Assembly (NCBI RefSeq): GCF_048388605.1
Contig: NZ_DBGCTU010000024.1
Location: forward strand, 6,939 to 70,938
From: Frisingicoccus sp.
GTDB taxonomy: Bacteria > Bacillota > Clostridia > Lachnospirales > Lachnospiraceae
Direction of reading: 5' to 3'
Length of the DNA: 64,000 nucleotides
The number at the start of each line of letters is the position of its first letter. The stretch's first letter is position 1. The notes beneath the pieces are model-generated. The model did not search any database and was not told the origin of the DNA. It saw only the letters and a list, made by a program, of their open reading frames with translations. Shown here piece after piece: positions 3,382 through 59,561 of the stretch. Position numbers and translations under genes: made by a program.

Positions 3382-3417
3382 TATTTTCTCCCCCTGACTT
3401 AATATTTTTTATAAAAA

Positions 3418-29987: not shown

Positions 29988-29993
29988 CTTTAG

Positions 29994-30200: not shown

Positions 30201-30237
30201 ATAGTATACAAGAAAGAGATAGAAAATGCAAGGATTT

Positions 30238-32163: not shown

Positions 32164-32255
32164 TAAAAATTTTTAAAATAATAAAGATAGGAAAGTAAGA
32201 CAATAATAAAACATATGATGAAAGGGAAAAATTTAGTTATGAGAACAGAAAGGAA

Positions 32256-32284
32256 TTGCAACTTGACGCAATCAATGTTACAAT
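32256..32284 (+). promoter_or_regulatory. promoter of the small-ORF/HD operon
   Basis: TTGCAA (32256-32261), a 17-nt spacer, then the extended -10 TGTTACAAT (32276-32284). Confidence 0.5.
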
Positions 32285-32329
32285 ATTTAGAACTAATCAC
32301 AATCTAAGAAAAACGGAGGGGTATGTAAA

Positions 32330-32689: not shown

Positions 32690-32691
32690 GT

Positions 32692-34326
32692 ATGAAAGAC
32701 TACAAAAGAATTAAAGACCCCATATATGGATATATACAAATACCGGTAAGGTATATGACAGATATTGTTGACACAGCACCGTTTCAAAGATTGCGGAGAA
32801 TAATACAAACAAGTTATTCTCCGCTTTACTCTTCTGCGGTACACAATCGTTTTGTTCATTCAATGGGCGTTTATTATCTGGGAGAATTGGCAGCTGATCA
32901 GTTGACTAGAGAAGCAACAGTTAAAATAGATAATACAATTAATTTTTCTATGTATGGTGAAGTTTTCAAGCTTGCATGTCTTTTACATGATGTAGGCCAT
33001 GCTCCCTTTTCTCATACGGGAGAGAGTTTTTATCTTGGTGAAGATCATGATTATACAAAGTTGCACGAAAAGTTAATTGAAGTTATTGGAAGTACAGAAT
33101 TTGAAAGGGACATTCCGCAGGATAAAAGCTTAGCAGCTGCACCACATGAGATTATGAGTGCGATAATAGGTGTTTTAAAATATAGAACTTTTTTTGATAC
33201 TGTAGAGAAAAAAGAGCTTTTTGTTCGTTGTATTACGGGGTATAAATATTCTGTAAGAACGACAGAAAACAGTATAAAGAATTGTTTTATTTCAATGCTT
33301 AATTCTAAGGTAATTGATGTTGATAAGTTGGATTATCTAATCAGGGATGCATACATTACAGGATTTGATACAGTAAATATTGACTTTGAAAGATTACTTT
33401 CTTCACTTACACTTTCAAAGAATAATGGAATGTATGAGATTGCATATAATAAAAACGCAATTAGTGTTATTGAAAATGTAGTTTATGCTCATGATGCAGA
33501 AAAGAAATGGATTCAAACACACCCTGTAGTTCTTTATGAGGCTTACATACTTCAGCATGTTTTTTCGCATTTAAGTGAAAATATGGATAATGAAGGTAAA
33601 AAATTATTTTCTTTGGAATCATTAAGCGTAGAGGGGCAGCAATTTAATGACAATATATCTATTGCCTTATTATGTGATGATGATATAATTTTTTTGATGA
33701 AAAATGTATATCCCAATGAAATTAGTAAAGAATTTTTTGAGCGTAGAGAAAGGCGTCACCCTGTATGGAAGTCAGAGGCCGAATATAAAGCTTTTGTTTT
33801 AAATTTGGCGAGAGGTGGCGAACTTTTGCAGGAGTTTGAAACCGCCATGAGTGTTACTGCAAAATATCTCATTAAAAGTACTGATTCATGGGTTATAGAT
33901 GATGCGCTCATTGATAAGCTTGAAAAAGAAAAAGTGGTTCTTGAAGGAATGGATATAGATCCTGAGACAAAAGAAGTGCAGTTAGGAAATAAGATAAAAA
34001 TTTTAAAGGTAATGCATTCTTTACAGAGTTATGCAAAAGAAAAAGGAATTGAATGCAATTTTGTGATTTTGATGGCTTCGCAGTTTAACAGTGGATTTGG
34101 AAAATCAGACTTTTCTGCGACAAAAGTAGTGTTCCAAACGAAGGATGAGGACAAAGTTGCTAAGGTTGGTGATATTGTATCTTCATTGCAAGCAAAGGAG
34201 AAGGAAAGAGATAATTTCTTTTACCTATTTTATAAGAGAAAAGAAGATATGAGCATAGATGATATAGAGATAGATAATCAAGAGATATGTAAAAGATTAT
34301 TTAAAGAAGTTGTTTTTGAGGATTAG
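32692..34326 (+). CDS. SAMHD1/dGTPase-like HD-domain dNTP triphosphohydrolase
   Basis: Contains IKDPIYGYIQIP, TAPFQRLRRIIQ, HNRFVHSMGV, LLHDVGHAPFSH and DVDKLDYLIRDAYITG. This is the ordered motif set of the dGTPase/SAMHD1 HD family. The C-terminal 200 aa or so are unassigned. Confidence 0.8.
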   Translation: MKDYKRIKDPIYGYIQIPVRYMTDIVDTAPFQRLRRIIQTSYSPLYSSAVHNRFVHSMGVYYLGELAADQLTREATVKIDNTINFSMYGEVFKLACLLHDVGHAPFSHTGESFYLGEDHDYTKLHEKLIEVIGSTEFERDIPQDKSLAAAPHEIMSAIIGVLKYRTFFDTVEKKELFVRCITGYKYSVRTTENSIKNCFISMLNSKVIDVDKLDYLIRDAYITGFDTVNIDFERLLSSLTLSKNNGMYEIAYNKNAISVIENVVYAHDAEKKWIQTHPVVLYEAYILQHVFSHLSENMDNEGKKLFSLESLSVEGQQFNDNISIALLCDDDIIFLMKNVYPNEISKEFFERRERRHPVWKSEAEYKAFVLNLARGGELLQEFETAMSVTAKYLIKSTDSWVIDDALIDKLEKEKVVLEGMDIDPETKEVQLGNKIKILKVMHSLQSYAKEKGIECNFVILMASQFNSGFGKSDFSATKVVFQTKDEDKVAKVGDIVSSLQAKEKERDNFFYLFYKRKEDMSIDDIEIDNQEICKRLFKEVVFED

Positions 34327-34598
34327 ATTGGTTTTACGGTAAAACCATATAGAATCTATACCAGCAATCACCATCTTATACAGGCGTTACACCAGATTGC
34401 ACGAGATTATACGTGCTTGCAAATGTGACGATTGCCCTTTTTCAGGGGGTCTGCTAATGGCTTGCTAATGGAACCACTTAAAACCAGCTTATATCAGCTT
34501 AATCGTGCCTGTACTGGCTTGACAGTGAAATGTGAAAAAAGCTTGATTTTGCTTGACTTTTCTTATACCAACTTACTTCTGCCTGACACCTTTGGGGC

Positions 34599-34644
34599 GA
34601 ACTCCTAAGCGAGGGGTCAGAGGTTCAAATCCTCCCGGAGACGG
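34599..34644 (+). other. tRNA 3'-half-like fragment 1 (anticodon loop to acceptor 3' strand); putative att remnant
   Basis: GAACTCCTAAGCG...GAGGTTCAAATCCTC...GGAGACGG shares CTCCTAAGCG with the tRNA-Arg anticodon arm. No matching 5' half lies upstream. Confidence 0.6.
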
Positions 34645-34651
34645 CTGCTAA

Positions 34652-34698
34652 AAGCGGGAATTATTAGCCGGAAAGGTTGAATAATTGTCCGCTTTTTT
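34652..34698 (+). terminator. intrinsic terminator following tRNA-like fragment 1
   Basis: GCGGGAATTATT / AATAATTGTCCGC long stem followed by TTTTTT. Confidence 0.6.
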
Positions 34699-35234
34699 CT
34701 TTGAATAAGAGGTGTTTGTTTTGATGTACCCCTGTGTTTAGACAGGTAAATCAGAGGAAAGCTCGGATAAGGGATTTGATAAGCAATATAAATGTATCAG
34801 TTCAGGCCGTGCCATTCGTAAAACCGCACTACGTGCTAACCGCGGCTGTCGCCGCTGTTTTACTCATATTCGGGCGCTCAGCACATCTGAATATCAGTCG
34901 CCGGATTTTTATGCGAGCATAAATCCGTCGCCTGACATCAGATGGCTGAACTGATATATATAAATTACATGAAGTGTCAAACGAGAAGCTCGTTTGGATC
35001 GGATTTACAAAATCCGGTCTGAACGGGCTTTTTCTGTTTCAGAAAAGAGAGGAGGCAGAGATGTGGAAGAAAGAGAGAAAGTGAAAGAGTATTGCGGAGT
35101 ACGGTATCCTGGATGATGATCGAAAGAAAAATGCGGAGCTGTTTGAGAAAGCATACCGGAATGAAATACAACACTTTACATTTATGCTTAAAAATAATAT
35201 AATATAAGAAAAAATGTAAAGAAGAGAGATATAT

Positions 35235-35828
35235 ATGACTAAAACAATGCTTTTAGAACAATTAATTGAAAAAAACCATGGGTATCTTCTTACTGCCCTT
35301 GCAGAAAAGAACCAGATTTCCAGAACATACGTAATGAAATATGTGAAAGCACATTCTATGGAGAAGGTTGCGCAAGGGATTTATATAGCTGATGATGTGT
35401 GGCCGGATGAATTATTTATCCTTCAGATCAGAAATCCTTCGGTTATTTTTTCTGGCGAAACTGCTCTTTATCTGCATGGCTTAATTGACAGAGAATATAC
35501 AGAAGTCTGTATTACAGTACCGAATGGATATAATGCCACTCGTTTGAAAAGAGATAATGTCCGGGTGAAATATGTTCCAAAAGAAATTCACAGTATGGGA
35601 GTTTGCGACGTTCCTTCCATCAGTGGGAATATAGTCAGAGCTTATGACAAAGAAAGATGTATCTGTGAATTGATAAAAGACAGAAAAAAATATGAAATAC
35701 AGAATTTTCAGACAGCAGTAAAAGATTATATGTCAAGGAAAGAGAAAAATTTATCCAGATTGCTTGAATATGCAGAAAAACTGAAAATCAGGGATGAAGT
35801 GATGAAATATGTGGAGGTACTTGTATGA
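35235..35828 (+). CDS. AbiEi/AbiGi-family antitoxin-like protein (type IV TA, abortive infection)
   Basis: 197-aa ORF with an N-terminal wHTH. Its overall sequence is typical of AbiEi_4-type proteins. It overlaps the downstream AbiEii-like gene by 4 nt (ATGA). Confidence 0.7.
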   Translation: MTKTMLLEQLIEKNHGYLLTALAEKNQISRTYVMKYVKAHSMEKVAQGIYIADDVWPDELFILQIRNPSVIFSGETALYLHGLIDREYTEVCITVPNGYNATRLKRDNVRVKYVPKEIHSMGVCDVPSISGNIVRAYDKERCICELIKDRKKYEIQNFQTAVKDYMSRKEKNLSRLLEYAEKLKIRDEVMKYVEVLV

Positions 35829-36373
35829 TTCATACATCAAAACAGCTAAAAGACAAAGTGCGTAACCTTTCAAAAGGAGATAATGACATTGCGAAGGCAC
35901 TGATCCGGACATTTATGATGGAACGATTCCTTGAAAGGGTTTCTTTATCGAAATATAGAGAAAATCTTATTTTAAAAGGCGGAATGCTTGTAGCATCTAT
36001 AGTGGGAACGAACTTAAGAGCAACAATGGACATTGATACAACAGTTAAAGCGCTTCCTTTAAATAAAACTGAGGCAGAAAAAATAGTGGATGAAATAGCT
36101 GCAGTACCTGTTGAGGATGGCGTGACCTTTCAAATTAAGTCTATCACAACGATTATGGATGATTTCGACTATCCGGGTGTCAGGATTATGCTTGAAGCTA
36201 TATTAGAAAAATTGAGGCAGAGTATAAAGCTTGATATATCTACAGATGATGTTATGGCTCAGATGTGGGAACGGTTTCGCAAGAAAAATTATTTTGTCGG
36301 TGAACTTCAATGGGAGGAGGTGTCCGGAAAAGTTATTCAAAATATACAAGAGATTGTAGTCGAAAAGTCGTAG
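35825..36373 (+). pseudogene. AbiEii/AbiGii-family nucleotidyltransferase toxin, abnormally short (probable internal deletion)
   Basis: The N-terminal NTase core is present (ILKGGMLV, MDIDT). After KLDISTDDV the sequence jumps to a C-terminal-like tail (WERFRKKNYFVGELQWEEV). It is 182 aa, whereas I recall this family as substantially longer. Confidence 0.55.
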
Positions 36374-36622
36374 ACAAACCGACCATATCACGGTATTATA
36401 TATATGTAAATCCGATTAATTTAATACTGTTTATCATTCCTGCACAACGGGAAATGGTAATCGATTCTAAAGCAGGCCATGAACAGTAATGCATTGTCCT
36501 AATATTTCATCTTTAACTCGGCATTACAGAGGCTTACAGTAATTAACCGGATTCGATTGATAAATCAAGAAATAACGTTGTTTTCTTATCATAAAAGGGA
36601 ATCGGCTTGACAGGCATGATTT

Positions 36623-36667
36623 GAACTCCTAAGCGCTAGCTGTGGGTTCGATTCCCGCAGGGGACGG
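36623..36667 (+). other. tRNA 3'-half-like fragment 2; putative att remnant
   Basis: GAACTCCTAAGCG (identical 13-mer to fragment 1), then the T arm GTGGG-TTCGATT-CCCGC, then GGGGACGG. It is followed by a hairpin and TTTTTT at 36677-36730. Confidence 0.6.
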
Positions 36668-36933: not shown

Positions 36934-37464
36934 TTATAAGGGTTAGAAGGTATTTATTTGATAGAAAAACGAGATCAGACTGTCAAACTTCCGGATTCTT
37001 TTATTCACTAAAAAAGAATTGTAATTTATGTATAATTTTCGTATAATAATAAAGAGACTATGAAGGGGTCTTTTCTGCACTTATGGTTATGGAACTCTAC
37101 GGATTCACTTATTTTCTGAATTTTTATTCTGTTCCGTGACGGAATTGTCCGGAATATGCGCCGGTTGTCATGGAATATTCGGTCATGGCAGAGGAAACCA
37201 CTGGAAAGATTCTTGCAGAGATGAAATGACAGATAGTATCTGATTGCAGCTGTACCAAACAGTTCATATATATATGGCTCAGAAAGTATGCGTGAGGGCA
37301 CGATTTTGTTACGGTATCTTTGATATAATAAAATATATTTTACATAAAATGAGCTGCCCGACAAATGGTGAGCCTGCAGATTTTTTCGCACTTTGTGCTT
37401 TCAAAATCTGCAAAATAAAATAAGATGTTTGTATATAAGATTACTTGAAAAGGGGGATCGAATC

Positions 37465-38130
37465 TTGAAAAAGACGGAAAATACAGAGGTTCGAAAACAT
37501 TCATGGAGGCATATGTTTCTAACTATTCTGGGGACTGTTCTATGTATCATTCTGATTCCGATTTTAATAATGAATATTTCGCTTATTGTGAAGAGCTATA
37601 CAAATAGTGATAAAGTTCCGAGTGTTGGTGGTTATCTGCCTCTGATCGTGCTGACAGATTCTATGTATCCGGAAATACACAGCGGAGATTTGATTATTTG
37701 CCATACGATAAATCCGGAGGAGGTTGCGACAGGTGATGTGATTGCCTTTTTTGATCCGGCAGGAAATGGGACAAGCGTTGTGACACACCGGGTGGTTGAG
37801 ATAACCAGGGAGAACGGGGAACTTGCATTTATCACAAAAGGTGATGCCAATAATGCGGAGGATCAGATGCCGGTGCCAGCGGGGAGTTTGGTGGGACAGT
37901 ACCGCACCCGTATTGCCGGAGCGGGTAATATCGCAATGTTTATGCAGACCACCACGGGACTGATTGTTTGTGTGGGTGTTCCGTTGGTTCTTCTGATCGG
38001 ATATGACGTTTTGCGCCGGAGACGCTATGAGAAGAGCAGGAAGGCGGATACAGATGCGCTGCTGCGGGAATTGGAGGAGCTGCGATCCCAACAAAAAAAT
38101 GAAAAAGGTCATTCGGAGGATGACAAATAG
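37465..38130 (+). CDS. sipW: SipW-type (S26B, ER/archaeal-type) signal peptidase I, copy 1
   Basis: Contains VLTDSMYPEIHSGDLII (catalytic Ser), THRVVEI (catalytic His) and KGDANN. A C-terminal TM helix is followed by a charged tail. The start is proposed at the TTG at 37465, 7 nt after AAGGGGGA; the upstream part of the track ORF has no RBS. Confidence 0.8.
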   Translation: MKKTENTEVRKHSWRHMFLTILGTVLCIILIPILIMNISLIVKSYTNSDKVPSVGGYLPLIVLTDSMYPEIHSGDLIICHTINPEEVATGDVIAFFDPAGNGTSVVTHRVVEITRENGELAFITKGDANNAEDQMPVPAGSLVGQYRTRIAGAGNIAMFMQTTTGLIVCVGVPLVLLIGYDVLRRRRYEKSRKADTDALLRELEELRSQQKNEKGHSEDDK

Positions 38131-38229
38131 ACAGGAAGAATGGACTGTCTGTGAAAATGGTATTCCATCCATGAAGGCCACGCTGTGGATTGAATATAGA
38201 TGAAATACGGAAGAAAGGAGAATTTCGCT

Positions 38230-38943
38230 ATGGAGAAAAATAGAATGATGCGTTTGGCTTCTGCTCTGCTGATATTGACGCTTTTGACTACATGCATGAT
38301 CAGCGGAACCTTTGCGAAGTATACCACGAAAGCAGAAGGAAGCGATACGGCACGGGTTGCAAAGTGGGGAGTGACTGTTACGGCAAATGGCAGCACTTTT
38401 GCAACAGAATATAATACAGATGATGGAATGGTATCAGGTACTATTGCAAAGTCTGTTGTAGCAGCGACATCGGCTAGTGGAACACAAGATAATCTTGTTG
38501 CTCCGGGGACCAAGGGAGAGATGACAAAGATGGCATTGAGCGGCACACCGGAAGTTGCAGTTAAGGTGAGCTATGTAGGACAGTTTGATATCAGCGATAA
38601 TTGGAAGGTTAATGGAATATTTTATTGCCCATTAGTTATCAAAGTGAAATCTGAAACTGGTACAACAGAAATTAAGGGCTTAACGTATACAACGGCTACT
38701 GATTTTGAAAATGCTGTCAATAATGCGATTGCTGATTATAGTACAAACTATGATGCCAATACTAATCTTTCCTCCAAGTCGGATGATTTTTTGTCCGTAG
38801 AATGGGAATGGCCGTTTAGTATTACGAATGATGATAATACGACTAATGATGAAAAGGATACATTTCTTGGTGGACAGGCAGCAAGTAATAATCCGGCTAC
38901 GGTTACCCTTACAGTAACAACAACCGTAACCCAGATCGACTGA
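38230..38943 (+). CDS. TasA/BsaA/camelysin-like secreted protein with a SipW-dependent-type signal peptide (candidate major fibre subunit)
   Basis: The N-terminus MEKNRMMRLASALLILTLLTTCMISGTFAKYTTKAEGSDTARVAKWGVTV matches the h-region plus TFA(W/Y)(F/Y)T pattern of SipW substrates. The body has APGT...N and EWEWPF...DT.LGGQ...LTVTTTVTQID blocks shared with two neighbouring genes. Confidence 0.7.
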   Translation: MEKNRMMRLASALLILTLLTTCMISGTFAKYTTKAEGSDTARVAKWGVTVTANGSTFATEYNTDDGMVSGTIAKSVVAATSASGTQDNLVAPGTKGEMTKMALSGTPEVAVKVSYVGQFDISDNWKVNGIFYCPLVIKVKSETGTTEIKGLTYTTATDFENAVNNAIADYSTNYDANTNLSSKSDDFLSVEWEWPFSITNDDNTTNDEKDTFLGGQAASNNPATVTLTVTTTVTQID

Positions 38944-38983
38944 TTCCAGGCGAATGAAATCGTATGATTGATTACATAAGACC

Positions 38984-39024
38984 ACACCCGTTCCGACGTG
39001 GCCGGGCGGGTGTTTCGTCTTTTG
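38984..39024 (+). terminator. possible leaky intrinsic terminator after the 237-aa TasA-like gene
   Basis: ACACCCG (38984-38990) pairs with CGGGTGT (39007-39013), followed by TTCGTCTTTTGTTTT. Confidence 0.4.
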
Positions 39025-39117
39025 TTTTCGCCAGAATCCATGGGATGTCTCATGGATTTTCGCGAAAGCAAAAGAGAGGATGTAAAAAAATAATCTGTGA
39101 AAGGAGGCTCCCGGAGG

Positions 39118-40089
39118 ATGGAAGAGAAAAGCGGCAGAAAAGAGAAAATGAAAAGTGGGAATGAGAAAAGAGAGTTGCTTTTTGTATTTCTTTTTCTTTT
39201 CATCTGTGTGGCTTTGACCAGTATTTTGTTGGCTGAACGCCTGAGTGCCCTTGCGGCATCCGAGAGCAATATCATTGCACTGGCTCCGTCCGAAGAAAAA
39301 ATAGAAGCAATAGAAGCTCCGGGGACTTTGACAAAGGAAAGCAACTACTCAAAGTCCGAAACAGTGAGAGCTGCTGCAGCTTCCACACGGATGGATGGGC
39401 AGTCTGAAATTTCACAGGGAGAGGCTCCGGAATATCAGGCAGGAGATGGAACCGGGACATGGACAACGGATACGAGAGTAGATCTCTTTCGTGTGCAATA
39501 TGAAAATGATCAGAAGGTCGTAACGGTCTGCGGAAATGACGGAGATGAAGTGATCGCTCCGGGAACGGAAAATGACTATACCTTCTGGCTGAAAAATACG
39601 AGCAATGGGACGGCAGATTATGAGATGTCAGTGGAGGCCTATATGACGTCCGGGGAGGCGGAGATCCCCGTGAAGGCGAGAATGAAAAATGATGGGGGAG
39701 ATTACCTGCTCGGCAGTGAAGAACAGTGGGATGAGGTTTTGGCATTAAATGGAGTTTCTGACAAGGCGACCCTGGGGGCCAACCGGTATGCCCGTTATAC
39801 GCTGGAATGGCAATGGCCCTTTGAATCCGGAGACGATGAATCAGATACGGCTCTGGGAAATCAAACAGAGGGAAAGGATATAGCACTTACTGTCGTTATC
39901 AAAACAGTCACTTCGGCAAATACAGATCCTGATTTGTCCGAAGGTCTCTCGCAGCCGGGAAGATTGGGTGTTCTGCCAAAAACAGGTGATGAGACACACA
40001 TTATGTTTTATCTGCTTCTTCTTGCGGGCTCAGGAACCCTGATTGTGATCATGCTGGTGAAAAGACGGAGAGAAAAAGCTTCCAGATGA
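39118..40089 (+). CDS. LPXTG cell-wall-anchored protein with a TasA-like domain
   Basis: The C-terminus LPKTGDETHIMFYLLLLAGSGTLIVIMLVKRRREK has the sortase signal, a TM helix and a basic tail. The body shares APGTENDYTFWLKNTS and YTLEWQWPFESGDDESDTALGNQ...LTVVIKTVT with the upstream gene. The N-terminal signal has ALAAS. Confidence 0.75.
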   Translation: MEEKSGRKEKMKSGNEKRELLFVFLFLFICVALTSILLAERLSALAASESNIIALAPSEEKIEAIEAPGTLTKESNYSKSETVRAAAASTRMDGQSEISQGEAPEYQAGDGTGTWTTDTRVDLFRVQYENDQKVVTVCGNDGDEVIAPGTENDYTFWLKNTSNGTADYEMSVEAYMTSGEAEIPVKARMKNDGGDYLLGSEEQWDEVLALNGVSDKATLGANRYARYTLEWQWPFESGDDESDTALGNQTEGKDIALTVVIKTVTSANTDPDLSEGLSQPGRLGVLPKTGDETHIMFYLLLLAGSGTLIVIMLVKRRREKASR

Positions 40090-40100
40090 GGAGGATACAG

Positions 40101-40703
40101 ATGCGCAGGAGTCGGACGGAAGGAAATGCGGAAAGCCGGATAAAAGAAAAACATGAGCATGGTCTTTTGAGAAGATGCCTTTTAATAGCGGCAGGACTGA
40201 TTCTGGGAGTGAATGTCTATCTCTGGAATGCCCGCAGCCTGGGGGGAAATCAGATGCCAATGCCTTTTGGATGCGGCATGTCCGTGGTACTGTCCGGCAG
40301 TATGGAACCCACATTGAAGGTCAATGATCTGCTTCTTGTGCGGGAGAAAGATCAGTATGAAGTGGGCGATATCGTGGTATATCAGTCCGGATATGAATTG
40401 ATCGTTCATCGGATTGTTTTCATGGATGAAAATGAAGTTGTGACACAGGGGGATGCAAACAGCGTGGCAGACCCACCGATTGACCGGGAGGCAGTAAAAG
40501 GTGTTGTCAGAGCCCGGATTCCCTATGTGGGAAAACTGGTAGGTTTGCTGAAAAGGCCTGTGGGAATTTTGCTGGTTTTGATATGTGCCTTTCTTTTAAT
40601 TGAACTATCTTTCTGGAGAGAGAAAAGAATAGACGATGAGAATCTGGATGCGATCAGGGAAGAAATCCGACGACTGAAGAAGGAACAGGAGAATGACCAG
40701 TGA
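40101..40703 (+). CDS. sipW: SipW-type signal peptidase I, copy 2
   Basis: Contains VLSGSMEPTLKVNDLLLV, VHRIV and QGDANS, with a C-terminal TM helix and a charged tail. The start is at the ATG at 40101, 6 nt after GAGGAGG. Confidence 0.8.
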   Translation: MRRSRTEGNAESRIKEKHEHGLLRRCLLIAAGLILGVNVYLWNARSLGGNQMPMPFGCGMSVVLSGSMEPTLKVNDLLLVREKDQYEVGDIVVYQSGYELIVHRIVFMDENEVVTQGDANSVADPPIDREAVKGVVRARIPYVGKLVGLLKRPVGILLVLICAFLLIELSFWREKRIDDENLDAIREEIRRLKKEQENDQ

Positions 40704-40721
40704 CAGAAGGAGGGATGGCGG

Positions 40722-41264
40722 ATGAATGAGACAAAAGAATATCGGCCAAACCGGGTATTTCGAGCGGCATTGGCGCTGCTATGTGTGGTACTGGTATCTG
40801 TGGGGATGATGTCAGGACTTTTGGCGAGATATACGGCCGGAGGCACCGGATCAGATGAGGCAAGAGTGGCGTCCTTTGACGTGACAGCAGATCTACAGAA
40901 TTTTGAAAAGGAATTTCCTGTGCAGCTGCAGCCGGGGAATTCTGTTACATGCAGTTTTGATATCACAAATTCCAGCGAGACAGCGGTAAATATGCAGGCA
41001 GTTTTGGAGACGGAGGGAAATCTCCCGTTAATGATAGAATATAAAAAAGGAAGTACGAATACAGGCAGTTGGGTTTCTCTTGCAAAGAATATTCAGGATG
41101 TTGAGGAAGGCTCATGCAAGTTTTCCGATGCAATGGCAGCTGGAAATAAGGAAAAACAGACCTATCAGATTCGAGTATCATGGCCTGAAGACAGAAACGG
41201 CTATCAGTATGCCAATGGAGTGGAGGCAGTGAAATTGTCCGTCACTGCCAGCCAGATCGATTAA
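40722..41264 (+). CDS. TasA/BsaA-like secreted protein with a SipW-type signal peptide (short paralogue)
   Basis: The N-terminus ...LVSVGMMSGLLARYTAGGTGSDEARVASFDVTA aligns residue for residue with the 38230 gene (SG..A.YT....GSD.ARVA). The C-terminus is KLSVTASQID. Confidence 0.7.
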   Translation: MNETKEYRPNRVFRAALALLCVVLVSVGMMSGLLARYTAGGTGSDEARVASFDVTADLQNFEKEFPVQLQPGNSVTCSFDITNSSETAVNMQAVLETEGNLPLMIEYKKGSTNTGSWVSLAKNIQDVEEGSCKFSDAMAAGNKEKQTYQIRVSWPEDRNGYQYANGVEAVKLSVTASQID

Positions 41265-41277
41265 GGAGGAGACGAGG

Positions 41278-42273
41278 ATGAAAAGTCAACACAAATTTCA
41301 TAGAAAACGAACCATTTTAGTGCTGGCTGTCATTCTGATTTTGAGCGTTACAGTAGTCGTAATGGCGAAGTATCTCCGTTCTTTTGAACCGGTCAGCGGT
41401 ATTATGACCTCAGATAAATTTTATTTTACAACGGATCTGCTGGGGGACAGTACCATGGTAGACAGCAGCGGGGAAAATCCGGGAAGCGGGTACGTATATG
41501 AGGACGTACAGGAGGGAACCTGGAACCTGTATGGCGGCGGCGCACATGAGATTACCTTTGAATTGCGCAATTATTATGATGATCTGAGAATCACACAGGG
41601 GCAGATTCCGTATACAGTCAGCGTGGAGGCAAAGACACCGGCGGATGAAAGCGGAAGCAGCAATCCGATTCAGGGATTGGCGACAATTTCCGATAATTCG
41701 GCTGATCCTGACGGTACTACCGGTTCTGAAATATCCGGAGCTCTGGGGAGTGCAGGATCGGAAGGAAAGGCCGTGCAGGAGATTACATTGTCGATAGCGG
41801 ATGAACAGACAGTTTCCTATGTTGATGGAACTGAGGTGATCGTTACGATACAAAGCACGTCCCCGTATAAGAAAATAATGAAGCTGCATTTTCTTTTGTA
41901 TCAGGTGGATACTTATCTGAGTTATGAGATTCAGGATTCTGTCGGAAGTCCTTATGCAGAATTGATTCTGATGGCGAATTCGGTTGGCACAGAGTCAACG
42001 GGCAGTGTACAGCCGTATTTGACATGGCCGAAGGATTTATCAATCGATAATACAAACGGGCTGACTTATACTTATGAGACTGATTTTGAACAACAGAGTG
42101 GAATGACAGATAGAAAAAACATGCAGATATCCCGGGCACTGCGGGCAAAAGAAAGTGAGTCGATTTATTTTTTCAAGGCGGATGTGTCGAAAAATTATTC
42201 GAAGCAGCGCACGATCGTGAATAAGAATGATGAAAACAATTATGAGATCTTGATAGGGCAGCTATCAGATTAA
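41278..42273 (+). CDS. hypothetical secreted or membrane protein with an AKY-type N-terminal region
   Basis: 331-aa ORF with an AAGGAGGAG RBS. The N-terminus KRTILVLAVILILSVTVVVMAKYLRSF resembles the h-region plus AKY motif of its neighbours. The rest shows no motif I recognise. Confidence 0.6.
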   Translation: MKSQHKFHRKRTILVLAVILILSVTVVVMAKYLRSFEPVSGIMTSDKFYFTTDLLGDSTMVDSSGENPGSGYVYEDVQEGTWNLYGGGAHEITFELRNYYDDLRITQGQIPYTVSVEAKTPADESGSSNPIQGLATISDNSADPDGTTGSEISGALGSAGSEGKAVQEITLSIADEQTVSYVDGTEVIVTIQSTSPYKKIMKLHFLLYQVDTYLSYEIQDSVGSPYAELILMANSVGTESTGSVQPYLTWPKDLSIDNTNGLTYTYETDFEQQSGMTDRKNMQISRALRAKESESIYFFKADVSKNYSKQRTIVNKNDENNYEILIGQLSD

Positions 42274-42316
42274 TTGCAGATAAAAAAGTACCGGTGAATA
42301 AAGAGGGCAGACAAAT

Positions 42317-45300
42317 ATGAGAAAGAAAAAAAGAGTATTAGCTGCTGTGTTTGCGGCGGTTTTGATTATATGTACGGTATTTGCGGAAGCGGATGTTACT
42401 GTTGCTGCAACAAGCATAGATACAAGTACATCAACAGATGCGGTTGTTCAGGAAACAGATGCGATGGTTCAGGAATCAGAGGAACAGATCGTTGATGAAA
42501 CGGAAACAGATGCGACGGTTCCGGAGACAGAAGACCAGATCGCTGATGAAACGGTGGATAACGTTCAGGAGACAATAGAGAGTGAGAGTGAAACGGAAAC
42601 TCAGGAGATAATTTCGGAAGAAACTGAGGAAGAAACTGAGGAGAAAACGCAAGAGGTAATTGCTTCGTATCCATGGTCTGATCTGGATGACGAGGCTTTT
42701 TGTGCATGGGTGACAGGCGGTGAGCATGATGAGAAACTCAAGGCCATGGATGAAGAACATGGTCAGGAGTATGAGGCCTTTCAGCAGCGTCTGGAAGAGA
42801 TCACTGCGCAGGATGTTCTGCAGCGCATCATGCAATATATAATGAATTTGAATGGATCAAACGAGAGCATAGCAACAATGAATATAGAAACAGAAGCATT
42901 TAATTCCATGTGTCAATCTATATTTGGAGTGGATTACGCTGGATTTAAAAGCAATACCAATTATGCTGAAGTTTATGTCGGACAGAACGCCGGCGGAGAA
43001 CAAACCGGTGATCTCGGCACGCAAACAAAGCCATATAATACGGTTAATGCGGCGTATTCTTCTCTATCCTCCAAATCAGGAGTGATCATCCACCTTTTGG
43101 AGAGTTATGGAAGTGTGTCTGAGCCTATAACGACTTGGCCTGATAATCCGATTCCTGCCATCATTGTCAGTGATGCATATGGAACAGCAGTTTTGAATAT
43201 GTCAGGCTTGAAATGGAACTTTCCTGCCAATACAGGCTTTTACAATGTGAAGATTAACCTTGCATATTCAGACAATACGACTGCAGCGATATTTGCCAAT
43301 GGGCATCATGTTGTATTTGGCGGTAAAGAAGAAAATAATTTTGCATTCATAAACAATAATGAAACGAATCGATATTATCCGACCCTGTTCGGCGCTTCAG
43401 AACAAGGTACAGGGACACAGAGCTCACACAGCTCTGTTGAAAATACACATCTGGAGGTTTATGGGGGAACATGGAGTCAGATTTTTGGCGGCGGTGAGTA
43501 CTATTCTGATGTAGACGGTACGGCAACAGTCATTGTGAATGGTTCCTATAGGGAGGACGGCACTCTTAAACCGGGGGCAGTTACATTTGCGGATACCGGG
43601 TTGTCCTATATGGAGGGCAGTAGCCATATCTATGGCGGCGGTGCAGGTGTTTACACTTTATTGTCCAAAGAAAATTACAGTAATGTTCAAAATACGGATG
43701 TTACGATCAGCTATATTACAACGAGTAAATATCTTACGCCCTGCGGGGGAAGTGTCACCGCCTCTGCAAAAATAAGTTTAGATTATGTCAATGCGATGGG
43801 CGTGAACGCCAGAAGCGAGGGTTCCAGTGCAAGTAAAGTATCTATTGTCATCCAGAACAGCACCATCAGCGAAGATGTTGGCGCATTAGGAGGCGGTGAC
43901 GGCGGCGCGAAGCAGGCATATAAGATGGTATCTGATATCAATGACTTTGATATCACAATAAAGAATTCTACTGTTAGGACTCTGTATGTAAAATCAAGAG
44001 CTCTTGCAGATGGCACATATAACAATTCTGTGACCGGTGTTGACTTATGTCTGGAAGACAGTACGTTTAATGAAATAACTCTGGCCAGGCTTCCCGCAAA
44101 TTACGAAAGCGGTACCGTTAATCGGCTGCGTTTAAAAAATGTAAGCTGCAATCGGTATCACGCGGAGGCAAATTTCAGAGAAATCAAACAAATCGAGCTC
44201 ATCGGGATCGGTACTGAGGCCGCGCCATTCAAGTGGGAGAACTATACATTTGGCAGCACGAATTACGGAAATGTAAATTCGGTCTCAGAGTCACTGCTGA
44301 TTGAAAACAGCTATGTAAACTTTGGGATTAACTATTCCACACAGAGTCTTGCGCTGAAAGGAAACAGCAGGGTCAGGCTGAAACAAAATCTTTCAATGGA
44401 AACGGGTGATTTTGAGGGTGATGCTGCAAGTCAGATCACGCTGGAAGACGGCAGCACCGTCAATATCAGCGGTGATGTTACCGGAACGGGAATAACGGTA
44501 GATCCTGTGTTTTCACCAGAAAATGCTTCGGCACAAATCCTGTGGAGCAGAGGAAGCAATCCAACGAACCTGTCCTATGTAAGCTCTGATAAAGCGGATT
44601 ATCGGTTCACGAAGGATTATACGGCAAGAATGGATATATGGAAGTGGTATAATTATGACCCTCCTGTATCAGAGTATTCTTATGTATATGTAGACGGTGG
44701 GCTTGGATATGATACTGCAGAGGAATACAATTCTGACCAGTGTACGGACGCAAATCTGGGGTATGATAAATTATATCCTGTGAAAACGTTTGCAAAGGCT
44801 TATTCGTTGTGTAAGGATTCAAATTACGTTATTGTTCTGTGCGGCGAATATGATCTGACCGTTGGCGAGACACCGGTAAGTCTGTTAGGGGATGCAGAAG
44901 CGAAGGATTTTCCGGTAAGAGTGCAGAGCACAGATGACAGAAATGACTATCGCAGCGTGGCAAAGCTGCGTTTTGCAGGAAGCACCGGAAATGTTACGTT
45001 ATCGGCGCCGCTGATTTTTGACAATATGAATCTGGAGTCATCGGTTGCCAATGGCAACGTCCGTATATTCAGTAATGGCAACAAAACCGAATATGGAGCC
45101 GGTGTGACCGTTATAAGAGTTGGAGATAAGTGCTCCGTTGAGGTATATGGCGGTGCAGACGGGGATAATGTTGCGTCTGCCGACCTTACCGTAAAGGCAG
45201 CATATTTTGATAAGATAGGTGCAGTCGGTAAAGATGATACAGCATCTGTGGGTGATGAAAATAATATTGTACAAACTGATATTGCGAAGCTCACGGTGAG

Positions 45301-48300
45301 TGAAAACAGCCAGGGTGTATCATCTGTGTGTTACTATGGAACCACATATGGAAGCGTACATACGGAGCTTTCCTATGCGGTTGGCAGTAAAAACATATAT
45401 AATGCTAATAGTAGTAACGGTACTGTGTATGGTGATTTTTATACAGAAGTTTCCAGCGGTAATGACAATAAGAAAAATGCCAGTGTTGTGCCCGATGGTC
45501 TGACGGTTAAGGGGAAAGTATCTTTTGTTGACCGGTCAGGAAAAACTTACTATGATTCTCTGAGTCTGAAAAAAGGTAATTTTAATGAGGTGTATATATA
45601 TCTGTCTGTTAAAGGTATAGGATCCATTGAACGTGGAAAATACGTTTCGCTTTTCGATTCGAACACAAAGGCGGATCATATAAGCTGGAATATATCAGGA
45701 AAGGTACCAAGAATTTTCGGAGCCAATGATAATGCGGGTATCAAGGCCGGAACCATGGCTGTGGATGTCGTCTTGAATAATACTGCGACAACCATCGTCA
45801 AAGCGTGTCCGGAAGCTGCCGGTAATACGGTAGACAGTGGATATCCGGAAAACGATAAGATAACGGTTACTCTGAAGGATTTTGCGGAAGGAAGCTATCT
45901 GGATGAGCTTTGGGGATTTGGCTCTATCGCATTTGATAACAGCAAGATTTTGGTAAACGCAGAAATCTCTGCGAAGAATGTTACTGTTGACCAGGGAAGC
46001 GTGGTTGTTTTTGCGAATCATGCGGCAATTGGATCTGCACCGGGTACGGGTAAGCTGACATTACAAAATGGTGGCAGTCTGGAAGTGCGAAATCAAATCG
46101 CTGTCAATGGCGATATGTGCGGCGGAGAATCGGCCGACGCTGCCGGAACGCTGATCGATAACTGGGCAGACGCAAACGACGAGACAGTAAGGATAACCGT
46201 TACCGGGAAGTCAACCGGGTATACCTATTTCTCCACGGACTATGCAAGTGCAGAAATCCAGGTAATGGGAGATACATTGGGCCATGAGTATATGGCGCCA
46301 AAGCTGCCCCCGGAGCTGCCGCCGATGAAGATTACCTGTACTCCGGCAGCTGCGGCTTCTCCGGCCAAGGAGCGTATCTGGACAGTCGAGAATCCGGTGA
46401 GCAAAAAATACATTTTTGTGAATGGAACCATTGACTCCTCTGCATCTGACTATACATCACACAATGGCTCCACTCCGGAGCTGGCCCTTGCGACACTGGA
46501 AGAAGCCTATGATACGGTACTGAATAACGGATATATTGTCCTGTGCGGAGATATTTCCCTTTCTTCATGGCCATTGAATGGTACAAAATCAGTAACGCTG
46601 ACAAGCAAAGTAACCATTGGAACCGGAGAAACTGCACGTACCTATGATTTCTTTTCTGCAGCTGCAGCGCAGCCCAGTTTTCTGGTTATAACGGATAATC
46701 TTGAGTTAAAGGGAGTGACGACCTTTGAGTATTTGAATATCAAGGCGGATAAAAATTATGTTCTGGGGGCCTGCGGGCATAAGCTTGTAATGGGACGTCA
46801 AGGCGATCCTGATTCTCTTAAGATGACAAATTTTCCGATTAGTGTTGGAGGCGGCGGATATAATCATGCGTATTCAAATATAAACAGTGATCTGACCATT
46901 CATGCGGGAATCTATAATATTGTTTCCGGCGGCAATAGTAGTGATATTATTAATGTATATAATAAATACAGCAGCGTGAATATTACGATTGATGGCGGAA
47001 CATTTCAGTCGGTCTATGCAAAATATAATTTATATGATGATTTTTCTGCTGCCAATGAAATATCTCTGTCAATCTGCAAGGCAAAGGTCGAAAATACGAT
47101 TTCTGCAATTAAAACCAATTATACGATGGGCAACGCTTATCAGGTAAATATTGGCGAAAACATGAAATTTGGTGAAGCGTGTTATATCAGAACCAGTGCC
47201 ACAACCATCAATTACACTCCCAATCCAGCCCCCAATATAACTTTCAAAATTGATGGCGGAACAGGGACCCGGTATAGAATTCCGACCATTTATGGCGGGC
47301 CAGGTGTTTATAACGGGAATAACACCATGAATGAAACAGTGACCGTGGATTTAAAGAATGTTGAAGTGGGCACTTTTATTTGTGGATCCTCGAATCAAAC
47401 TCTGCAGAAAAAGTCTAACGGTTCTATGGAATTGGTTTTAAATGAAAATGTTCATGTTTCCAAACTGTATTTGGGCGGTTCCATGCTAGCCGGCGCCAGT
47501 GCAAAGGTTTTTGTCAAATCGGATCAGGCAACCATTGATAAACTGCGTTCAGGCTCTGAGTTTTCAGCGTCAACGCCTGTAACATGCGAATTAACATATT
47601 CCACTGTGGGGACAGATTCAGAACATCCATATGTACTGAGCGGAGACGTTTGTCTGGATGGGCTGACAAAGTTAATCCTGAAAAATGCTGTGGTTGATTT
47701 TTCACAGGCAGGAAATTCAATCACGGTGGGAGAGATTAACGCCTCTGAGGGCGGCAGTATCATCCATAAGGGAAGGAACCTGACGCTGAATGCAGATTAC
47801 ACAGCCGGAACAAGTGACGAACCAACCATGTGGTATGGACAGAATGCCCCGCGCATTGTCATCAATGGTACGGTGAGCGGTACGACACACCTGCAGTCTT
47901 TGAGCGCTGACCCTTCGGCTGAAGATGGCAGTGTTACCGGTAAGTTCTATAATGGTATTTCCGTTACGGCGTCTCACAGTGATACTCATTCGGCAAATAA
48001 TTTCTTTGGACTTCAGTCCTCCGAAGGCGCAAAGCCTGAGTGGAAGGAACTTAAATTTACAGCGGGGACAGATACAGATACATGGAAAAAATCAGATGAA
48101 GGAGATACTGATGCCAGAATACAGGTGTATGTATCCTCCGAAGGGTCCGACAGCAATTCAGGCGCATTCCCGACGCCTGTCAAAACGCTGGCGCAGGCAT
48201 ATAAAAACGCGGATAGGCTTCATAAAGATGCTCCTTCCAAAACAAAGATTGAAATTATTTTGCTGGATGATATTGTGCATAATGGTGAGCTTCCGGCTTC

Positions 48301-51300
48301 GGCAGAATTGTCCAACGGTTTTTCTGTCCTGGTGAAGTCTTATGATGCCGCGTCTGCTTCCACGTTGACGATTGACAGTGACCCGGAGCTTCCGGTGGAT
48401 ACGACATTGGATAATATCATCATCAAAAGTACGGTTACGACAGGTTCTTGTGCGATTTTTGCAAACGGGAATACGCTGACTTGTACAGAGAATTTAAAGG
48501 TGGAGGCCGTCAATGGGCACTATCCTGTCATTTACGGCGGAACGAAGGATGCGACTGTCCTGGATCAGACGAACCTGCAGATATTTGGCGGAACCTGGAG
48601 CCGGATATTCGGAGGAAGTAAAACTGCATCTGTAACGACTGCAAATCTTTCGGTTGGAGGAAATGTTGATACTAAGAATGTCGGCAGCATAGCGGAAAAT
48701 GATACGGGCGTTTTCGGCGGAGGAGAGAATGGAACTGTTGGTACGGTGAACCTGAGCATTGATGGAGGTTCGTTCTATCGTGTGCTCGGCGGAGGTCTGA
48801 ATCCAGCCGCTGTTGTGCAGGGGAATATAACTGTTGATTTCAATCATGGGACAATTGACAGATTGTACGGCGGAGGACAATGGGCCCAAACTAACGGCAA
48901 TATTACAGTGAACATTGGCGGATCAAATGCTGAAGCAATGATTACGTCGATATTCCGCGGCAGCGGTCTGTATGCGGGTGTTGCCGAAGGCCAAAAAGCT
49001 ACTACGAATGTTATGGACGGTGCAATCATCAAGGAAGGAGTACAATTTGCAGCGGGCGGATATTCCGGCAACCTCGATGAAACAGAATTGAACATTTCCG
49101 GAGGAAGTATCAACTGTAACGTTTTTGCAGGCGGCTGGGGCGAAGGTACGAATGGCGCCTATGGAATTGTAGGCGAGAAGGCAGCTGTTACTATCACAGG
49201 CGGAACGATTACAGGGAATGTGTACGGCGGCGGCAATCTTGCTTTGGTGCATAACAATGCTGACAATGCTGCTGCCCTTGTAACCGTAAAAGGCGGCGCT
49301 ATTACGGGAAACGTATATGGCGGCGGCTATTCCGCAGGCGTTGATAATACCAATGTGACGATTCGGTCAAATGTCAAAGGCAGTGTGTTTGGCGGTGGAT
49401 ATGATATTACAGCGGATAAGCTTCAGGTGCAGAAGAGCAGTACTGTTACATTAGAAAGAGGTACGGTTGAAGAATCCGTTTTTGGCGGGAGTGATACGGC
49501 GGGACTTATCTCAGACTCCGTATCTGTGACGATTGCCGGAGATGTAACAGTCAAGAATGGTGTCTTTGGCGGTGGAAGCAAGGCGGCGCTTCAGATTACA
49601 CCTGATGTGAAAGTAAATAAAAACAAAACACTTACCGGTAGTATTTATGGCGGCGGCAAAGGCGCGGTGAACGGAGCTGTAGGAGCGATACAGAATGGAA
49701 TGATGTCCTTTTTCGCGCTATTTAGTGCAGAGAAAAGTTATACGATCGACGGTCTGACCGATGCGAATGTGCCTTCCACAAATGTTATAATCGAAGGTAC
49801 CGTGACGGGCGATGTCTTCGGCGGCGGAGAGATGGCTACCGTTGGAAAAGAAGACAGTACAACATGGAATAAGACTGTTACGAATGTAACATTGGAGAAT
49901 GGCGCTTCTGTGGATGGAAATATCTATGGAGGCGGGAAAGGCCAGAGCGAAAAAGACTATGCCGTTGTATATGGTTGTACCAGCGTCAGCTTAAATGGCG
50001 GTACGGTTAAAGCTGATCAAGATGACGAGAAGGCTGTTGCCGGGGCGGTTTTTGGGGGCGGTCAGATTGCCCCTGTGGCAGGCAGTACAAATGTCATAGT
50101 GAACGGGGGAACAATCAGTAATATCTTCGGCGGTAATGATGTTGAGGGCGAAGTCAATCAAACGACCAATGTGACGGTACCTGAAAACAGTACAGCAACG
50201 GTTACTCACATTTATGGCGGAGGCCGTAATGCAGCGCATAATCGGAATTCCGAATCTGATAAAGCGAACAACGTAACAATCAATGGTGGTAGCATTACAC
50301 AGATTTATGGCGGTGGTTATGGTGCTGCAGCGGTTTCCGGTGATACAGATGTAACGATTGCAGGTGGCATTGTGACAGAGGTGTTCGGCGGCGGTAATGC
50401 AGCCAAAACGAAGAAAGCATCCGTGACGATCACAGGCGGAAGGATTGATACAGCCTATGCAGGCGGAAATGCCGCAACTGTGACAGGTACAGATGAAGGG
50501 GCCGCAACTCTGACGGTGAATACAACAGACGATGTTCAACATGTAAACACTGTATTTGCCGGAAACAATCAGGAACCAATGGACATTCAGCCGGTTCTTG
50601 TTCTGACTGACGGTAAAATCGGAACCGTTTATTGTGGCGGAAATGCCGGAATTATGAGAAAAGCAGATGGCCTGACTTATGATTTTGACTATCCGAATAT
50701 TGAAGTTGGTACAGTCTATGCCGGATGCAACAATACGCCAAGTGATACTCCGACGGCTGATGTGAAACTGAATCTGATATCCGGAATCTATCATACCGTT
50801 TATGGCGGAAATAATGTAAACGGCAGAATGCAGCAGACAGACGTGGTGATCGATCGGGCTGAATTAAAAGATTTGACAGTCGATACGGTCTATGGCGGAG
50901 GAAACAAGGCTGAATCCAAAGCCACGAAGGTTGAGCTGCAAAATGGTACAGCAGCCACGGTGTATGGCGGCGGTAATGCGGCTACGGTAACGGATAGTGT
51001 GAAGATTCAGATGGGCGTACCGGACGACACAGGAAGTATACCGGGAGATGTATTTGTTACAGACCTCTACTGTGGAAATAACCAGGCGGATATGAAGATC
51101 CAGCCGGAGATCGATCTTAAGAAGGGAACGATCACGAACTTCTACGCCGGGGGAAATGCCGGAGATATGCTGTATCTGAGTACTGCAGACGGAACTGGTT
51201 ATACGGCGAATTATACCTTTGCCAGCGAGCAGGTATCGATCACGAATCTGTTCGGCGGCTGCAATCAGGCGGATATGGCAGGAACGGTAAGGCTTGTCCT

Positions 51301-58700: not shown

Positions 58701-59561
58701 GTTACTCTGGATTTCAGGAAAAGCGGAAAAACCGTAAAGAGCGGTCCGATTGAAGAGTTGGTGGGATTGAACGCTTTGGTTGCAGATGATGACGCCGATG
58801 TATGTATGCATATCTGTGATATGCTGATCGAGATCGGTATGAGAACAGAATGGACGACATTGGGCAAAGAGGCAGTGCTGAAAGCGGAATTTGCAGTAAA
58901 GAATAATAATGAGTACAGCGCCTATATTATTGATTGGTTGATGCCGGACATGAATGGAATCGAAGTCGTTCGCCGAATCCGGCGTGTGATCGGGGAGAGT
59001 ACGCCGATCATCATACTGACGGCATATGATTGGGCTGAAATCGAAGATGAAGCAAGAGATGCGGGAGTCACCGATTTCTGTTCTAAGCCTTTGTTTATGT
59101 CAGAGCTTCGCGCAATTTTAAATAAACGTTTTGTGGAGGATACTGTTGATGCGGAACCGGAGGAGAAAACGGTTGATTTCGAGGGAAGGACGATTCTCCT
59201 TGTTGAAGATAATGAACTGAATCAGGAAATTGCCGTCGAGATTCTTAAAGAAGCAGGCTTTGTGATCGATGTGGCAAATGATGGTGATGTGGCGGTTGAT
59301 ATTATGAGTAAGGCGGTACCGGGACAGTATGATTTAATTCTTATGGATGTGCAGATGCCGACGATGGACGGTTATGAGGCGACAAAAGCAATCCGACAGC
59401 TCCCTGACCCGGAGATCGCCAACATTCCGATTCTTGCAATGACTGCAAATGCGTTTGATGAAGACAAGAAAAATGCCCTTGCGGCAGGTATGAATGGACA
59501 TATTGCTAAGCCGATTGAGATACCGGGATTGATGGAGATGCTGAGGGATATTTTGGCATAG
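55746..59561 (+). CDS. hybrid sensor histidine kinase with an extracytoplasmic Cache-like domain and two receiver domains
   Basis: Two TM helices bracket a region of about 270 aa that is presumably extracytoplasmic. H-box [27 protein letters not shown] and G2 box [13 protein letters not shown] are present. REC1 has [11 protein letters not shown] and REC2 has [13 protein letters not shown]. The start is at the ATG at 55746, after GGAGGGTG. Confidence 0.9.

Follow-up and report, generated by a model that had tools for sequence, protein, structure and literature searches.

A conserved gene cassette with two SipW-type signal peptidases, an LPXTG-bearing subunit paralogue and a giant secreted protein in gut Clostridia: a candidate surface-fibre system

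In most strains of Clostridium perfringens, the genes of the bsa operon run sipW-bsaA-bsaB(LPXTG)-bsaB'-bsaC; a two-component system comes next, and a sortase gene is adjacent (10.1101/2024.11.04.621531). SipW is needed for the export and polymerisation of BsaA (PMC7395162), whose assembly has been proposed to start from a membrane-tethered subunit and to proceed through a donor strand to SipW cleavage (PMC7395162; 10.1101/2024.11.04.621531). The LPXTG-bearing BsaB was proposed, as a speculation of its authors, to anchor the polymer to the wall, and paralogues of TasA and BsaA share operons with genes for LPXTG and SpaA-domain proteins, signal peptidases and sortases (10.1101/2024.11.04.621531). 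Here we describe a seven-gene cassette at positions 37465–55456 of a 64,000-nucleotide (nt) stretch of DNA from Frisingicoccus sp. (Lachnospiraceae), hereafter the window. The closest precedent of this cassette is the C. perfringens sipW-bsaABC (sipW-bsaABCRSD) operon. It encodes two SipW-type peptidases, three related subunits (A, B and C), a D protein and a giant protein of 4,379 amino acids (aa), and by analogy with the bsa operon we hold it an evenly balanced proposition that these genes specify a SipW-dependent, sortase-anchored heteromeric surface fibre carrying the giant as an adhesin.

The first-pass annotation of this DNA had judged the architecture unlike that of sipW-bsaA, a view that the LPXTG-bearing BsaB of the bsa operon does not bear out (10.1101/2024.11.04.621531). 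Both clusters place a SipW-type peptidase gene first and the main subunit second, and both contain a second related subunit with an LPXTG motif (in most bsa strains), further secreted proteins, including the large BsaC, and a sensor kinase. A terminator-like hairpin past the A gene recalls the bicistronic and read-through transcripts reported for sipW-bsaA of C. perfringens (PMC7395162). However, the BsaA family model TIGR04090 matches none of A, B and C, which have only signal-peptide features in common with BsaA-like proteins. The cassette has two peptidases where bsa has one, its passenger is a 4,379-aa repeat protein whereas BsaC is a 70-kDa vWA protein, no sortase gene lies beside it, and the kinase is not conserved across cassettes.

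Other described filaments resemble the cassette in part. The tapA-sipW-tasA operon of Bacillus subtilis likewise has a dedicated S26B peptidase and a cleavage motif of the form G-T-Φ-A↓x-[FY] (GTWA↓AF in TasA), and TasA is a beta-sandwich subunit with an N-terminal strand for polymerisation and a separate anchoring or nucleating protein (PMC9674648, PMC10151520), to which the cassette can be likened from its genes and models. It differs in that the cassette subunits match neither PF12389 nor TIGR04088, reach an hhalign probability of at most 11% against TasA (query sequence confirmed identical to 8AUR), and do not retrieve 5OF1 or 8AUR in Foldseek; moreover, anchoring in the cassette is assigned to a paralogue bearing a covalent sorting signal, where Bacillus has a TapA-like protein instead. 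SpaA-type sortase pili share with the logic proposed here a shaft, minor or tip components that include a large adhesin, and a basal subunit that is joined to peptidoglycan by an LPXTG-type signal and ends assembly, but in the cassette the sorting signal is on B only, there is no class C sortase, and A and C end in a free TQID. Chaperone-usher pili are similar in having one major subunit, adaptors, a large adhesin and one extension-less terminal subunit that sets the polarity of the chain. The cassette, in contrast, has no chaperone, usher or outer membrane, its extension-less subunit bears a wall anchor and would hence be the base rather than the tip, and no fold similarity was detected (the pilin domains of SafA and PapG came up in Foldseek with E > 0.1 only). 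Archaeal bundling pili, threads and cannulae combine type I signal peptidase processing, beta-rich subunits and N-terminal donor strands (PMC9245690, PMC9715654, PMC12518558), but no sequence or structural match linked the cassette to these filaments, CanA appearing only at E = 0.26 with a low-confidence model. New with respect to all these systems are a subunit family outside the catalogued TasA/BsaA models, two fixed peptidase paralogues, the split of an N-terminal extension among the subunits, interchangeable giant passengers and a very wide spread in gut Clostridia. The system had been put forward as undescribed, and we found no paper describing the two-peptidase cassette and no curated family covering its subunits; given BsaA, the cassette is not a conceptual surprise, but it is widespread, well defined and testable.

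Relatives of the 237-aa A subunit (p237) are present in at least 560 species-representative genomes, and 80 loci of the 560 matching species genomes, one genome per species, were fetched for comparison. The carriers are nearly all uncultured gut or rumen Clostridia (Lachnospiraceae, Oscillospiraceae, Acutalibacteraceae and Ruminococcus), and no p237 relative was found on a plasmid. The p237 homologues form about 6,000 clusters at 90% identity, none of them with a Pfam domain. Given a long enough contig, nearly all 80 fetched loci showed the order sipW1–A–B–sipW2–C–(D)–large protein–(E), which agrees with the earlier description of the genes as one system and supports the view that the seven genes are one conserved functional unit rather than a chance neighbourhood. 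In the window, all seven are encoded on the + strand with a Shine-Dalgarno-like sequence before each, and the spacers between them are, in order, 99, 174, −4, 18, 13 and 43 nt; the tiny spacers reported for these same-strand genes are thus found at the last four junctions and not at the first two. The window proteins are identical to RefSeq WP_418746422-427 of Frisingicoccus sp., where the cassette products are labelled hypothetical, 'LPXTG cell wall anchor domain-containing' or, for the giant, 'beta strand repeat-containing protein'.

Both peptidases were identified as archaeal/ER-type (endoplasmic reticulum) signal peptidases I of the S26B type, as the first reading of the DNA had it. The first, sipW-1 (37465–38130, +), encodes 221 aa from a TTG start with a strong ribosome-binding site, AAGGGGGA, 7 nt upstream; the second, sipW-2 (40086–40703, +), encodes 205 aa, and its start overlaps the stop of the B gene by 4 nt. 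Both passed the 51.85-bit curated cut-off of TIGR02228 (106.8 bits, E = 9.3e-31, and 70.8 bits, E = 1.1e-19, respectively), and both contain the S-M-x-P, H-R-[VI] and G-D-A-N motifs with the Ser, His and Asp residues (DSMYP, THRV and GDANN in sipW-1; GSMEP, VHRI and GDANS in sipW-2). Against the Bacillus SipW equivalog NF046067 they scored 93.5 and 61.1 bits, under its cut-off of 190 bits, and they are thus SipW-like rather than SipW orthologues. The two share only 25% identity (blastp). The gene upstream of A was the best match to sipW-1 in all 70 loci having one, and the peptidase gene past B was the best match to sipW-2 in 69 of 70; together with the low identity, this indicates an old, fixed pair of paralogues and not the product of a recent duplication, as 'duplicated peptidase' might have suggested.

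Analysis of the subunits revealed that A, B and C are one new, uncatalogued family of paralogues, as judged from profile comparison. The A subunit, a candidate major subunit (38230–38943, +), has a signal peptide, a GTFA↓KY site, the extension DTARVAKWGVTVTA, a beta-sandwich domain and a C-terminal TVTQID. B (39118–40089, +; 323 aa) is a paralogue of A without the N-terminal extension and with an LPKTGD sorting signal, and C (p180; 40722–41264, +) is a short A paralogue in which GLLARY...DEARVASFDVTA presents the same cleavage motif and N-terminal extension before a QID end. The p237 and LPXTG proteins have APGT and W-x-W-P-F...D-T-x-L-G blocks in common, as pointed out before, and align at 33% identity over 49 aa in blastp. 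The N-termini of p237 and p180, previously called near-identical, are similar at 45% identity over 58 aa (blastp). In hhalign, full-length profiles gave probabilities of 99.2% for A and B, across the whole domain, and 99.3% for A and C1, with A, C1 and C2 related at 98.6–99.3%. Because signal peptides can inflate such scores, the comparison was repeated on the mature parts, where the probabilities were 98.0% for A–B, 97.1% for A–C1, 95.9% for A–C2, 95.8% for C1–C2 and 96.1% for C2–D2, against at most 27% for the p331-type D protein and at most 22.5% for E with anything. The paralogy claimed at the outset accordingly holds for p237, the LPXTG protein and p180, and does not extend to p331 beyond its signal motif. 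Both p237 and p180 end in QID, as noted earlier, and the A and C1 proteins stop exactly at ...T-V-T-Q-I-D, with Q235 invariant and I236 and D237 at least 90% conserved; this free C-terminus may have a functional role of its own.

The distribution of the N-terminal features differs among these paralogues. The six frames of the window contain three instances of a hydrophobic run with ΦA[KR]Y behind it, compared with 0.02 in residue shuffles, and all three fall in p237, p180 and p331. Among 196 A sequences, the most conserved parts are GTFAKY (mean top-residue frequency 0.96) and DTARVAKWGVTVTA at residues 39–52 (0.83), both of which precede the core of the domain; K30/K45, E108 and D210 are also conserved and may be compared with the isopeptide-like N35-E56-K74 of BsaA. 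In a by-eye alignment, which can only indicate resemblance, GTFA↓KY of A lines up with the SipW site GTWA↓AF of TasA. The extension motif D-x-A-R-[VI]-[AI]-x-[FWL] was present in 73 of 80 A proteins and 26 of 45 C proteins, but in none of 65 B, 14 D and 35 E proteins or 49 large proteins. Thus A and C consist of extension plus domain and B of domain plus anchor, a pattern that fits, without proving, a donor-strand fibre ending on a sortase-anchored base.

The anchor of B, LPKTGDETH-IMFYLLLLAGSGTLIVIML-VKRRREKASR, comprises an LPXTG-type motif, a transmembrane segment and a basic tail. It scored 21.5 bits against TIGR01167 (cut-off 15.9) and 19.8 bits against Pfam PF00746 (cut-off 20), and this three-part ending, with PxTG(D) as its motif, is present in 51 of 65 complete B orthologues. 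The claim of a wall-anchored paralogue is borne out by both the homology of B to A and this predicted sorting signal. The B orthologues of five loci (L012, L024, L052, L082 and L083; about 390–414 aa) are without a sorting signal and have a conserved end, ...QGISAEARR.I.EAGG.V.IT, which could represent another kind of C-terminal module or could stem from faulty calling of the open reading frame (ORF). Sortase-dependent anchoring to peptidoglycan points to the vegetative wall, and this bears on the idea that the cassette builds a sporulation-specific structure, be it exosporium fibres or another spore-surface or developmental appendage. SipW and TasA of B. subtilis are also associated with spores, PDB entry 5OF1 names TasA 'spore coat-associated protein N', and the carriers of the cassette are largely spore-forming Clostridia; yet neither sporulation genes nor sigma-factor signatures were found around the cluster, and we regard a role in the spore as highly improbable.

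Searches with family models revealed no membership of A, B or C in the TasA or BsaA families. In hidden Markov model (HMM) searches, PF12389 (Peptidase_M73) matched none of p237, B, p180 and p331 at E ≤ 0.1 and none of the B, C, D and E orthologues of related loci at E ≤ 1. TIGR04088 (SipW-cognate signal peptide) matched no window protein at E ≤ 0.1 and 0 of 55 A-family members at E ≤ 1, and TIGR04090 likewise matched no window protein and 0 of 55 A-family members. Nor did any of the 55 hit a TasA model, and scans of orthologues of the other components pointed to no TasA or BsaA membership of B, C or D. No Pfam or NCBIfam family was found for p237, p180 or p331, and B was matched through its anchor only. 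The proposals that the small proteins are of the TasA/camelysin type and that their AKY signal is a variant of the SipW-substrate signal therefore received no support from these models. A profile search of A against PDB sequences returned only a chance match. A transitive chain of full-length profiles from A through C2, D2 and E to BsaA (98.6, 98.5 and 93%) was considered and rejected, as D2–E fell to 0.2% and C2–E to 22% once the signals were trimmed; the chain is thus an artefact of signal-peptide resemblance. The profile links of A, C and D to E were all gone after trimming, and E itself is absent from the window.

Structure prediction gave a similar picture. The full-length p237 model was mediocre (predicted local distance difference test score, pLDDT, 74.8), and its precursor residues 26–41, which comprise the cleavage motif and the first part of the extension, lay below pLDDT 50. 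The model of mature p237, built with 120 homologues, reached pLDDT 90.4 and a predicted template modelling score (pTM) of 0.84 and consists of a ten-stranded beta-sandwich and two helices; its residues 11–20 average pLDDT 93. Foldseek of this model against the PDB gave a best E of 0.05 and template modelling (TM) scores of at most 0.31, with generic jelly rolls as hits, and neither TasA entry (5OF1/8AUR) was in the top 50, so the anticipated TasA jelly roll did not emerge; since Foldseek is weak on beta-sandwiches, a very distant relation to TasA is compatible with this null result. Against viral models (BFVD) there was no significant neighbour.

That mature monomer model, which seats the extension on its own domain with high confidence, and the lack of similarity of A to known fibre subunits are also what would be expected of a non-polymeric anchoring and maturation module. 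In such a module the giant would be tethered or chaperoned at the wall, by way of B, by a stoichiometric complex of the small proteins; the peptidases would only time the release of unusual signal peptides, and the N-terminal segment would be a peptidase recognition or docking element. It accounts less readily for the terminator-like hairpin past A, as for a component needed in excess, or for the pairing of extension and domain in A and C against a bare domain in B, which is the pattern of a donor-strand chain; in addition, dedicated SipW peptidases are so far known from polymerising substrates (PMC7395162; PMC9674648). We consider this alternative rather unlikely, and two features of the related loci speak for it.

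One is that every cassette ends with one large variable protein; the other concerns the D and E genes. In the commoner variant of the cassette, C ends in ...AVQ.GGF, a short D is sometimes present, and a large protein of 1.4–2.3 kaa (thousand amino acids) with SpaA/DUF7601-type domains and a conserved WSWRY...WLNGNS C-terminus is trailed by E. About a dozen fetched loci belong to the variant of the window, whose C ends in QID, whose D is p331-like, whose giant is of another kind and which lacks E. A p331-like D of at least 240 aa was present in nine fetched loci, and none of these nine had a trailing E. Thus p331-like D and E never occurred together in the loci examined, and each accompanied its own type of giant C-terminus, as a partner would. 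The E protein, of about 180 aa with the signal pattern G-T-x-A-[FY]-M-[FY], lies behind the large protein in L001–L004, L007, L011 and many other related loci. TIGR04090 matched 10 of 14 E proteins (best E = 1.3e-12), under its 60-bit cut-off, and a database search with the E family gave no named BsaA protein among the matches listed, only close relatives of E.

The large proteins of three loci (L025, L037 and L074; 738–967 aa) begin with a hydrophobic run and an [FY][AGS]KY signal, and they may be direct substrates of a dedicated peptidase. The variant of the window also occurs in the complete genome of a cultured strain, Roseburia hominis CP159990.1 (L085, 785233–805775). In this locus, sipW-2 and C are separated by inserted small helix-turn-helix (HTH) genes, there are DDE transposases upstream, and a 1,790-aa gene, two opposite-strand genes and a 1,958-aa gene are found where the related locus L086 has a single 4,577-aa gene. 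The split relative to L086 suggests that the giant gene may be disrupted in that strain.

The presence of BsaA-family E proteins in related cassettes also bears on a third possibility, a released matrix fibre like those of TasA and BsaA, in which A would polymerise in the extracellular matrix, B would only nucleate the polymer at the cell surface, and the giant would be an independent, co-regulated matrix or aggregation protein. BsaA polymers are mostly extracellular (PMC7395162), and the gene order resembles that of sipW-bsaABC with its sensor kinase behind, as the giant gene is followed at 55731–59561 by the gene for a hybrid histidine kinase (1,276 aa, two receiver stretches) that echoes bsaRS past bsaC. 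We examined this kinase as a conserved part of the cassette and rejected it, because it is not conserved beside related cassettes, which weakens the parallel. A is moreover no detectable member of the TasA/BsaA family, and the conservation of a covalent wall-sorting signal in B also speaks against this possibility. We therefore regard a released matrix fibre as distinctly unlikely.

The reading that we prefer is an anchored fibre, for which the following assembly may be envisaged. After Sec export, the subunits would remain tethered to the membrane via their signal peptides, and SipW cleavage would free the extension of each to serve as a donor strand for the next, cell-proximal subunit, as in the model proposed for BsaA (10.1101/2024.11.04.621531). 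A would polymerise into the shaft. C, whose gene lies past sipW-2 together with those of D and the giant, would be located at the distal end and link the giant adhesin. B would accept the last donor strand and donate none, and a housekeeping sortase would join it to peptidoglycan, so that growth ends and the fibre is anchored. The hairpin past A would favour production of A over that of the minor components. This reading draws on the synteny, the paralogy that persists without signal peptides, the distribution of the extension, the conservation of the cleavage motif and extension, and the anchor of B, as well as on the hairpin parallel, the BsaA-family E neighbour and the precedent of SipW and BsaB (PMC7395162; 10.1101/2024.11.04.621531). 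It is also consistent with the structure models, in which the segment at precursor residues 26–41 is poorly defined in the full-length protein and residues 11–20 are confidently placed in the mature monomer.

Several points weigh against an anchored fibre. A polymer, a fibre or peptidase dependence has been observed for no member. Donor-strand exchange is inferred from monomer models and the distribution of a motif, A, B and C match no TasA, BsaA or SipW-signal model, and the confident A model has no significant structural neighbour, TasA and donor-strand pilins included. No sortase gene was found in the cassettes inspected or the annotated related loci, and a Pfam scan of ten flanking genes of the window (28.9–36.4 kb and 59.8–63.4 kb) revealed no sortase. 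The promoter-like site upstream of sipW-1, which matches 10 of 12 sigma-70 positions, and the hairpin are consensus matches only. Finally, the giant has neither the extension nor an A-like domain, so that its attachment to the fibre is conjecture, and its display there is a matter of pure inference.

The giant (42317–55456, +), read from its sequence as a hypervariable secreted protein, has an ordinary signal peptide (…TVFA↓EAD), an acidic linker, a conserved helical N-domain and several repeat modules; no anchor was seen in its sequence, as had been stated before. Neither the whole protein nor its 600-aa pieces matched Pfam or NCBIfam, and there was no match among PDB sequences; searches of the window giant for an A-like domain or extension motif were likewise negative. 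A Gly-rich zone at aa ~2000–3400 contains [YFL][GAC]GG motifs with shortest gaps of 24–36 aa and many longer ones, and P-x(1-3)-T-Φ-x-x-A-[YL] sites lie at aa 239, 821 and 1954; as signs of a beta-helix or solenoid, these motifs and sites are suggestive only. The repeat region (48104–51616, aa 1930–3100) has 1,127 representative relatives, 120 of them at E ≤ 1e-30; the best 150 of the 1,127 are 136–6,805 aa long, mostly above 1,000 aa, and six tested distant relatives contain no Pfam domain. By sequence comparison, the repeat region thus defines a large family of giant proteins outside Pfam coverage. The giant shares 36% identity over 1,014 aa with its 4,577-aa positional counterpart in L086. 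The helical N-domain (YPW..LDD..F.AWVTGGE.DE.LK.M.EE.G.E..AFQ.RLEE; 42600–42950, aa ~100–210) is conserved in both giants despite the otherwise low identity, which makes it a candidate docking domain. The D protein, p331 (41278–42273, +), shares only its signal peptide and MAKY motif with A and C and has no match in Pfam, NCBIfam or the PDB.

A broader version of the proposal would see in A, B and C an unrecognised class of Gram-positive fibre, with a fold unrelated or very distantly related to TasA, assembly by N-terminal strand exchange, two SipW-type peptidases serving shaft and base and tip, respectively, and a sortase-anchored, extension-less paralogue, which together form a common stalk for interchangeable, hypervariable giants of 0.7–4.6 kaa in hundreds of species of gut and rumen Clostridia. 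We offer this version tentatively, as possible but open to considerable doubt. Little is known of the surface appendages of Lachnospiraceae, Oscillospiraceae and related groups, the dominant bacteria of the human and ruminant gut, or of their means of attachment to mucus, fibre particles and each other. As no Pfam or NCBIfam family covers the subunits, surveys based on PF12389 or TIGR models miss the cassette. If it does encode a fibre, SipW-dependent assembly would reach beyond biofilm matrices to wall-anchored adhesive organelles, and the model offers both a division of labour between two dedicated signal peptidases and a polarity rule that sets extension-bearing subunits against the extension-less, anchored one. 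The variable giants would be candidate determinants of niche and host specificity, and the cultured carrier R. hominis makes the idea directly testable.

Possible regulatory sites were found at three places on the + strand. The promoter-like site lies at 37019..37047 and is weak evidence, and the terminator-like hairpin at 39004..39020, followed by a T-run, lies 60 nt past the p237 stop as a possible attenuator. A further terminator-like hairpin is found past the giant gene at 55689..55709 (1 found, compared with 0.2 expected in shuffles). For the first two sites, the counts of their kind in the region were not above those of shuffles, and the promoter-like site is therefore a candidate only.

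The G+C content of 38000–56000 is 0.43–0.50, compared with 0.34–0.41 in the flanks, which could be due to the Gly/Ala/Thr-rich proteins of the cluster or to horizontal acquisition beside a defence island. The region upstream (29914–36666) begins with a tRNA-Arg(CCT) at 29914–29988, behind which lie genes encoding an Abi_2 protein, an integrase-like protein that matches Phage_integrase over part of the domain only, an HD-domain protein and an AbiEii toxin. It is read as a small integrated defence island. A 197-aa ORF before the AbiEii toxin gene has no Pfam hit and is read as its putative AbiEi partner. A degenerate tRNA-like sequence at 36580–36666, which scored 19 bits, under the Rfam threshold, may mark the far end of the island.

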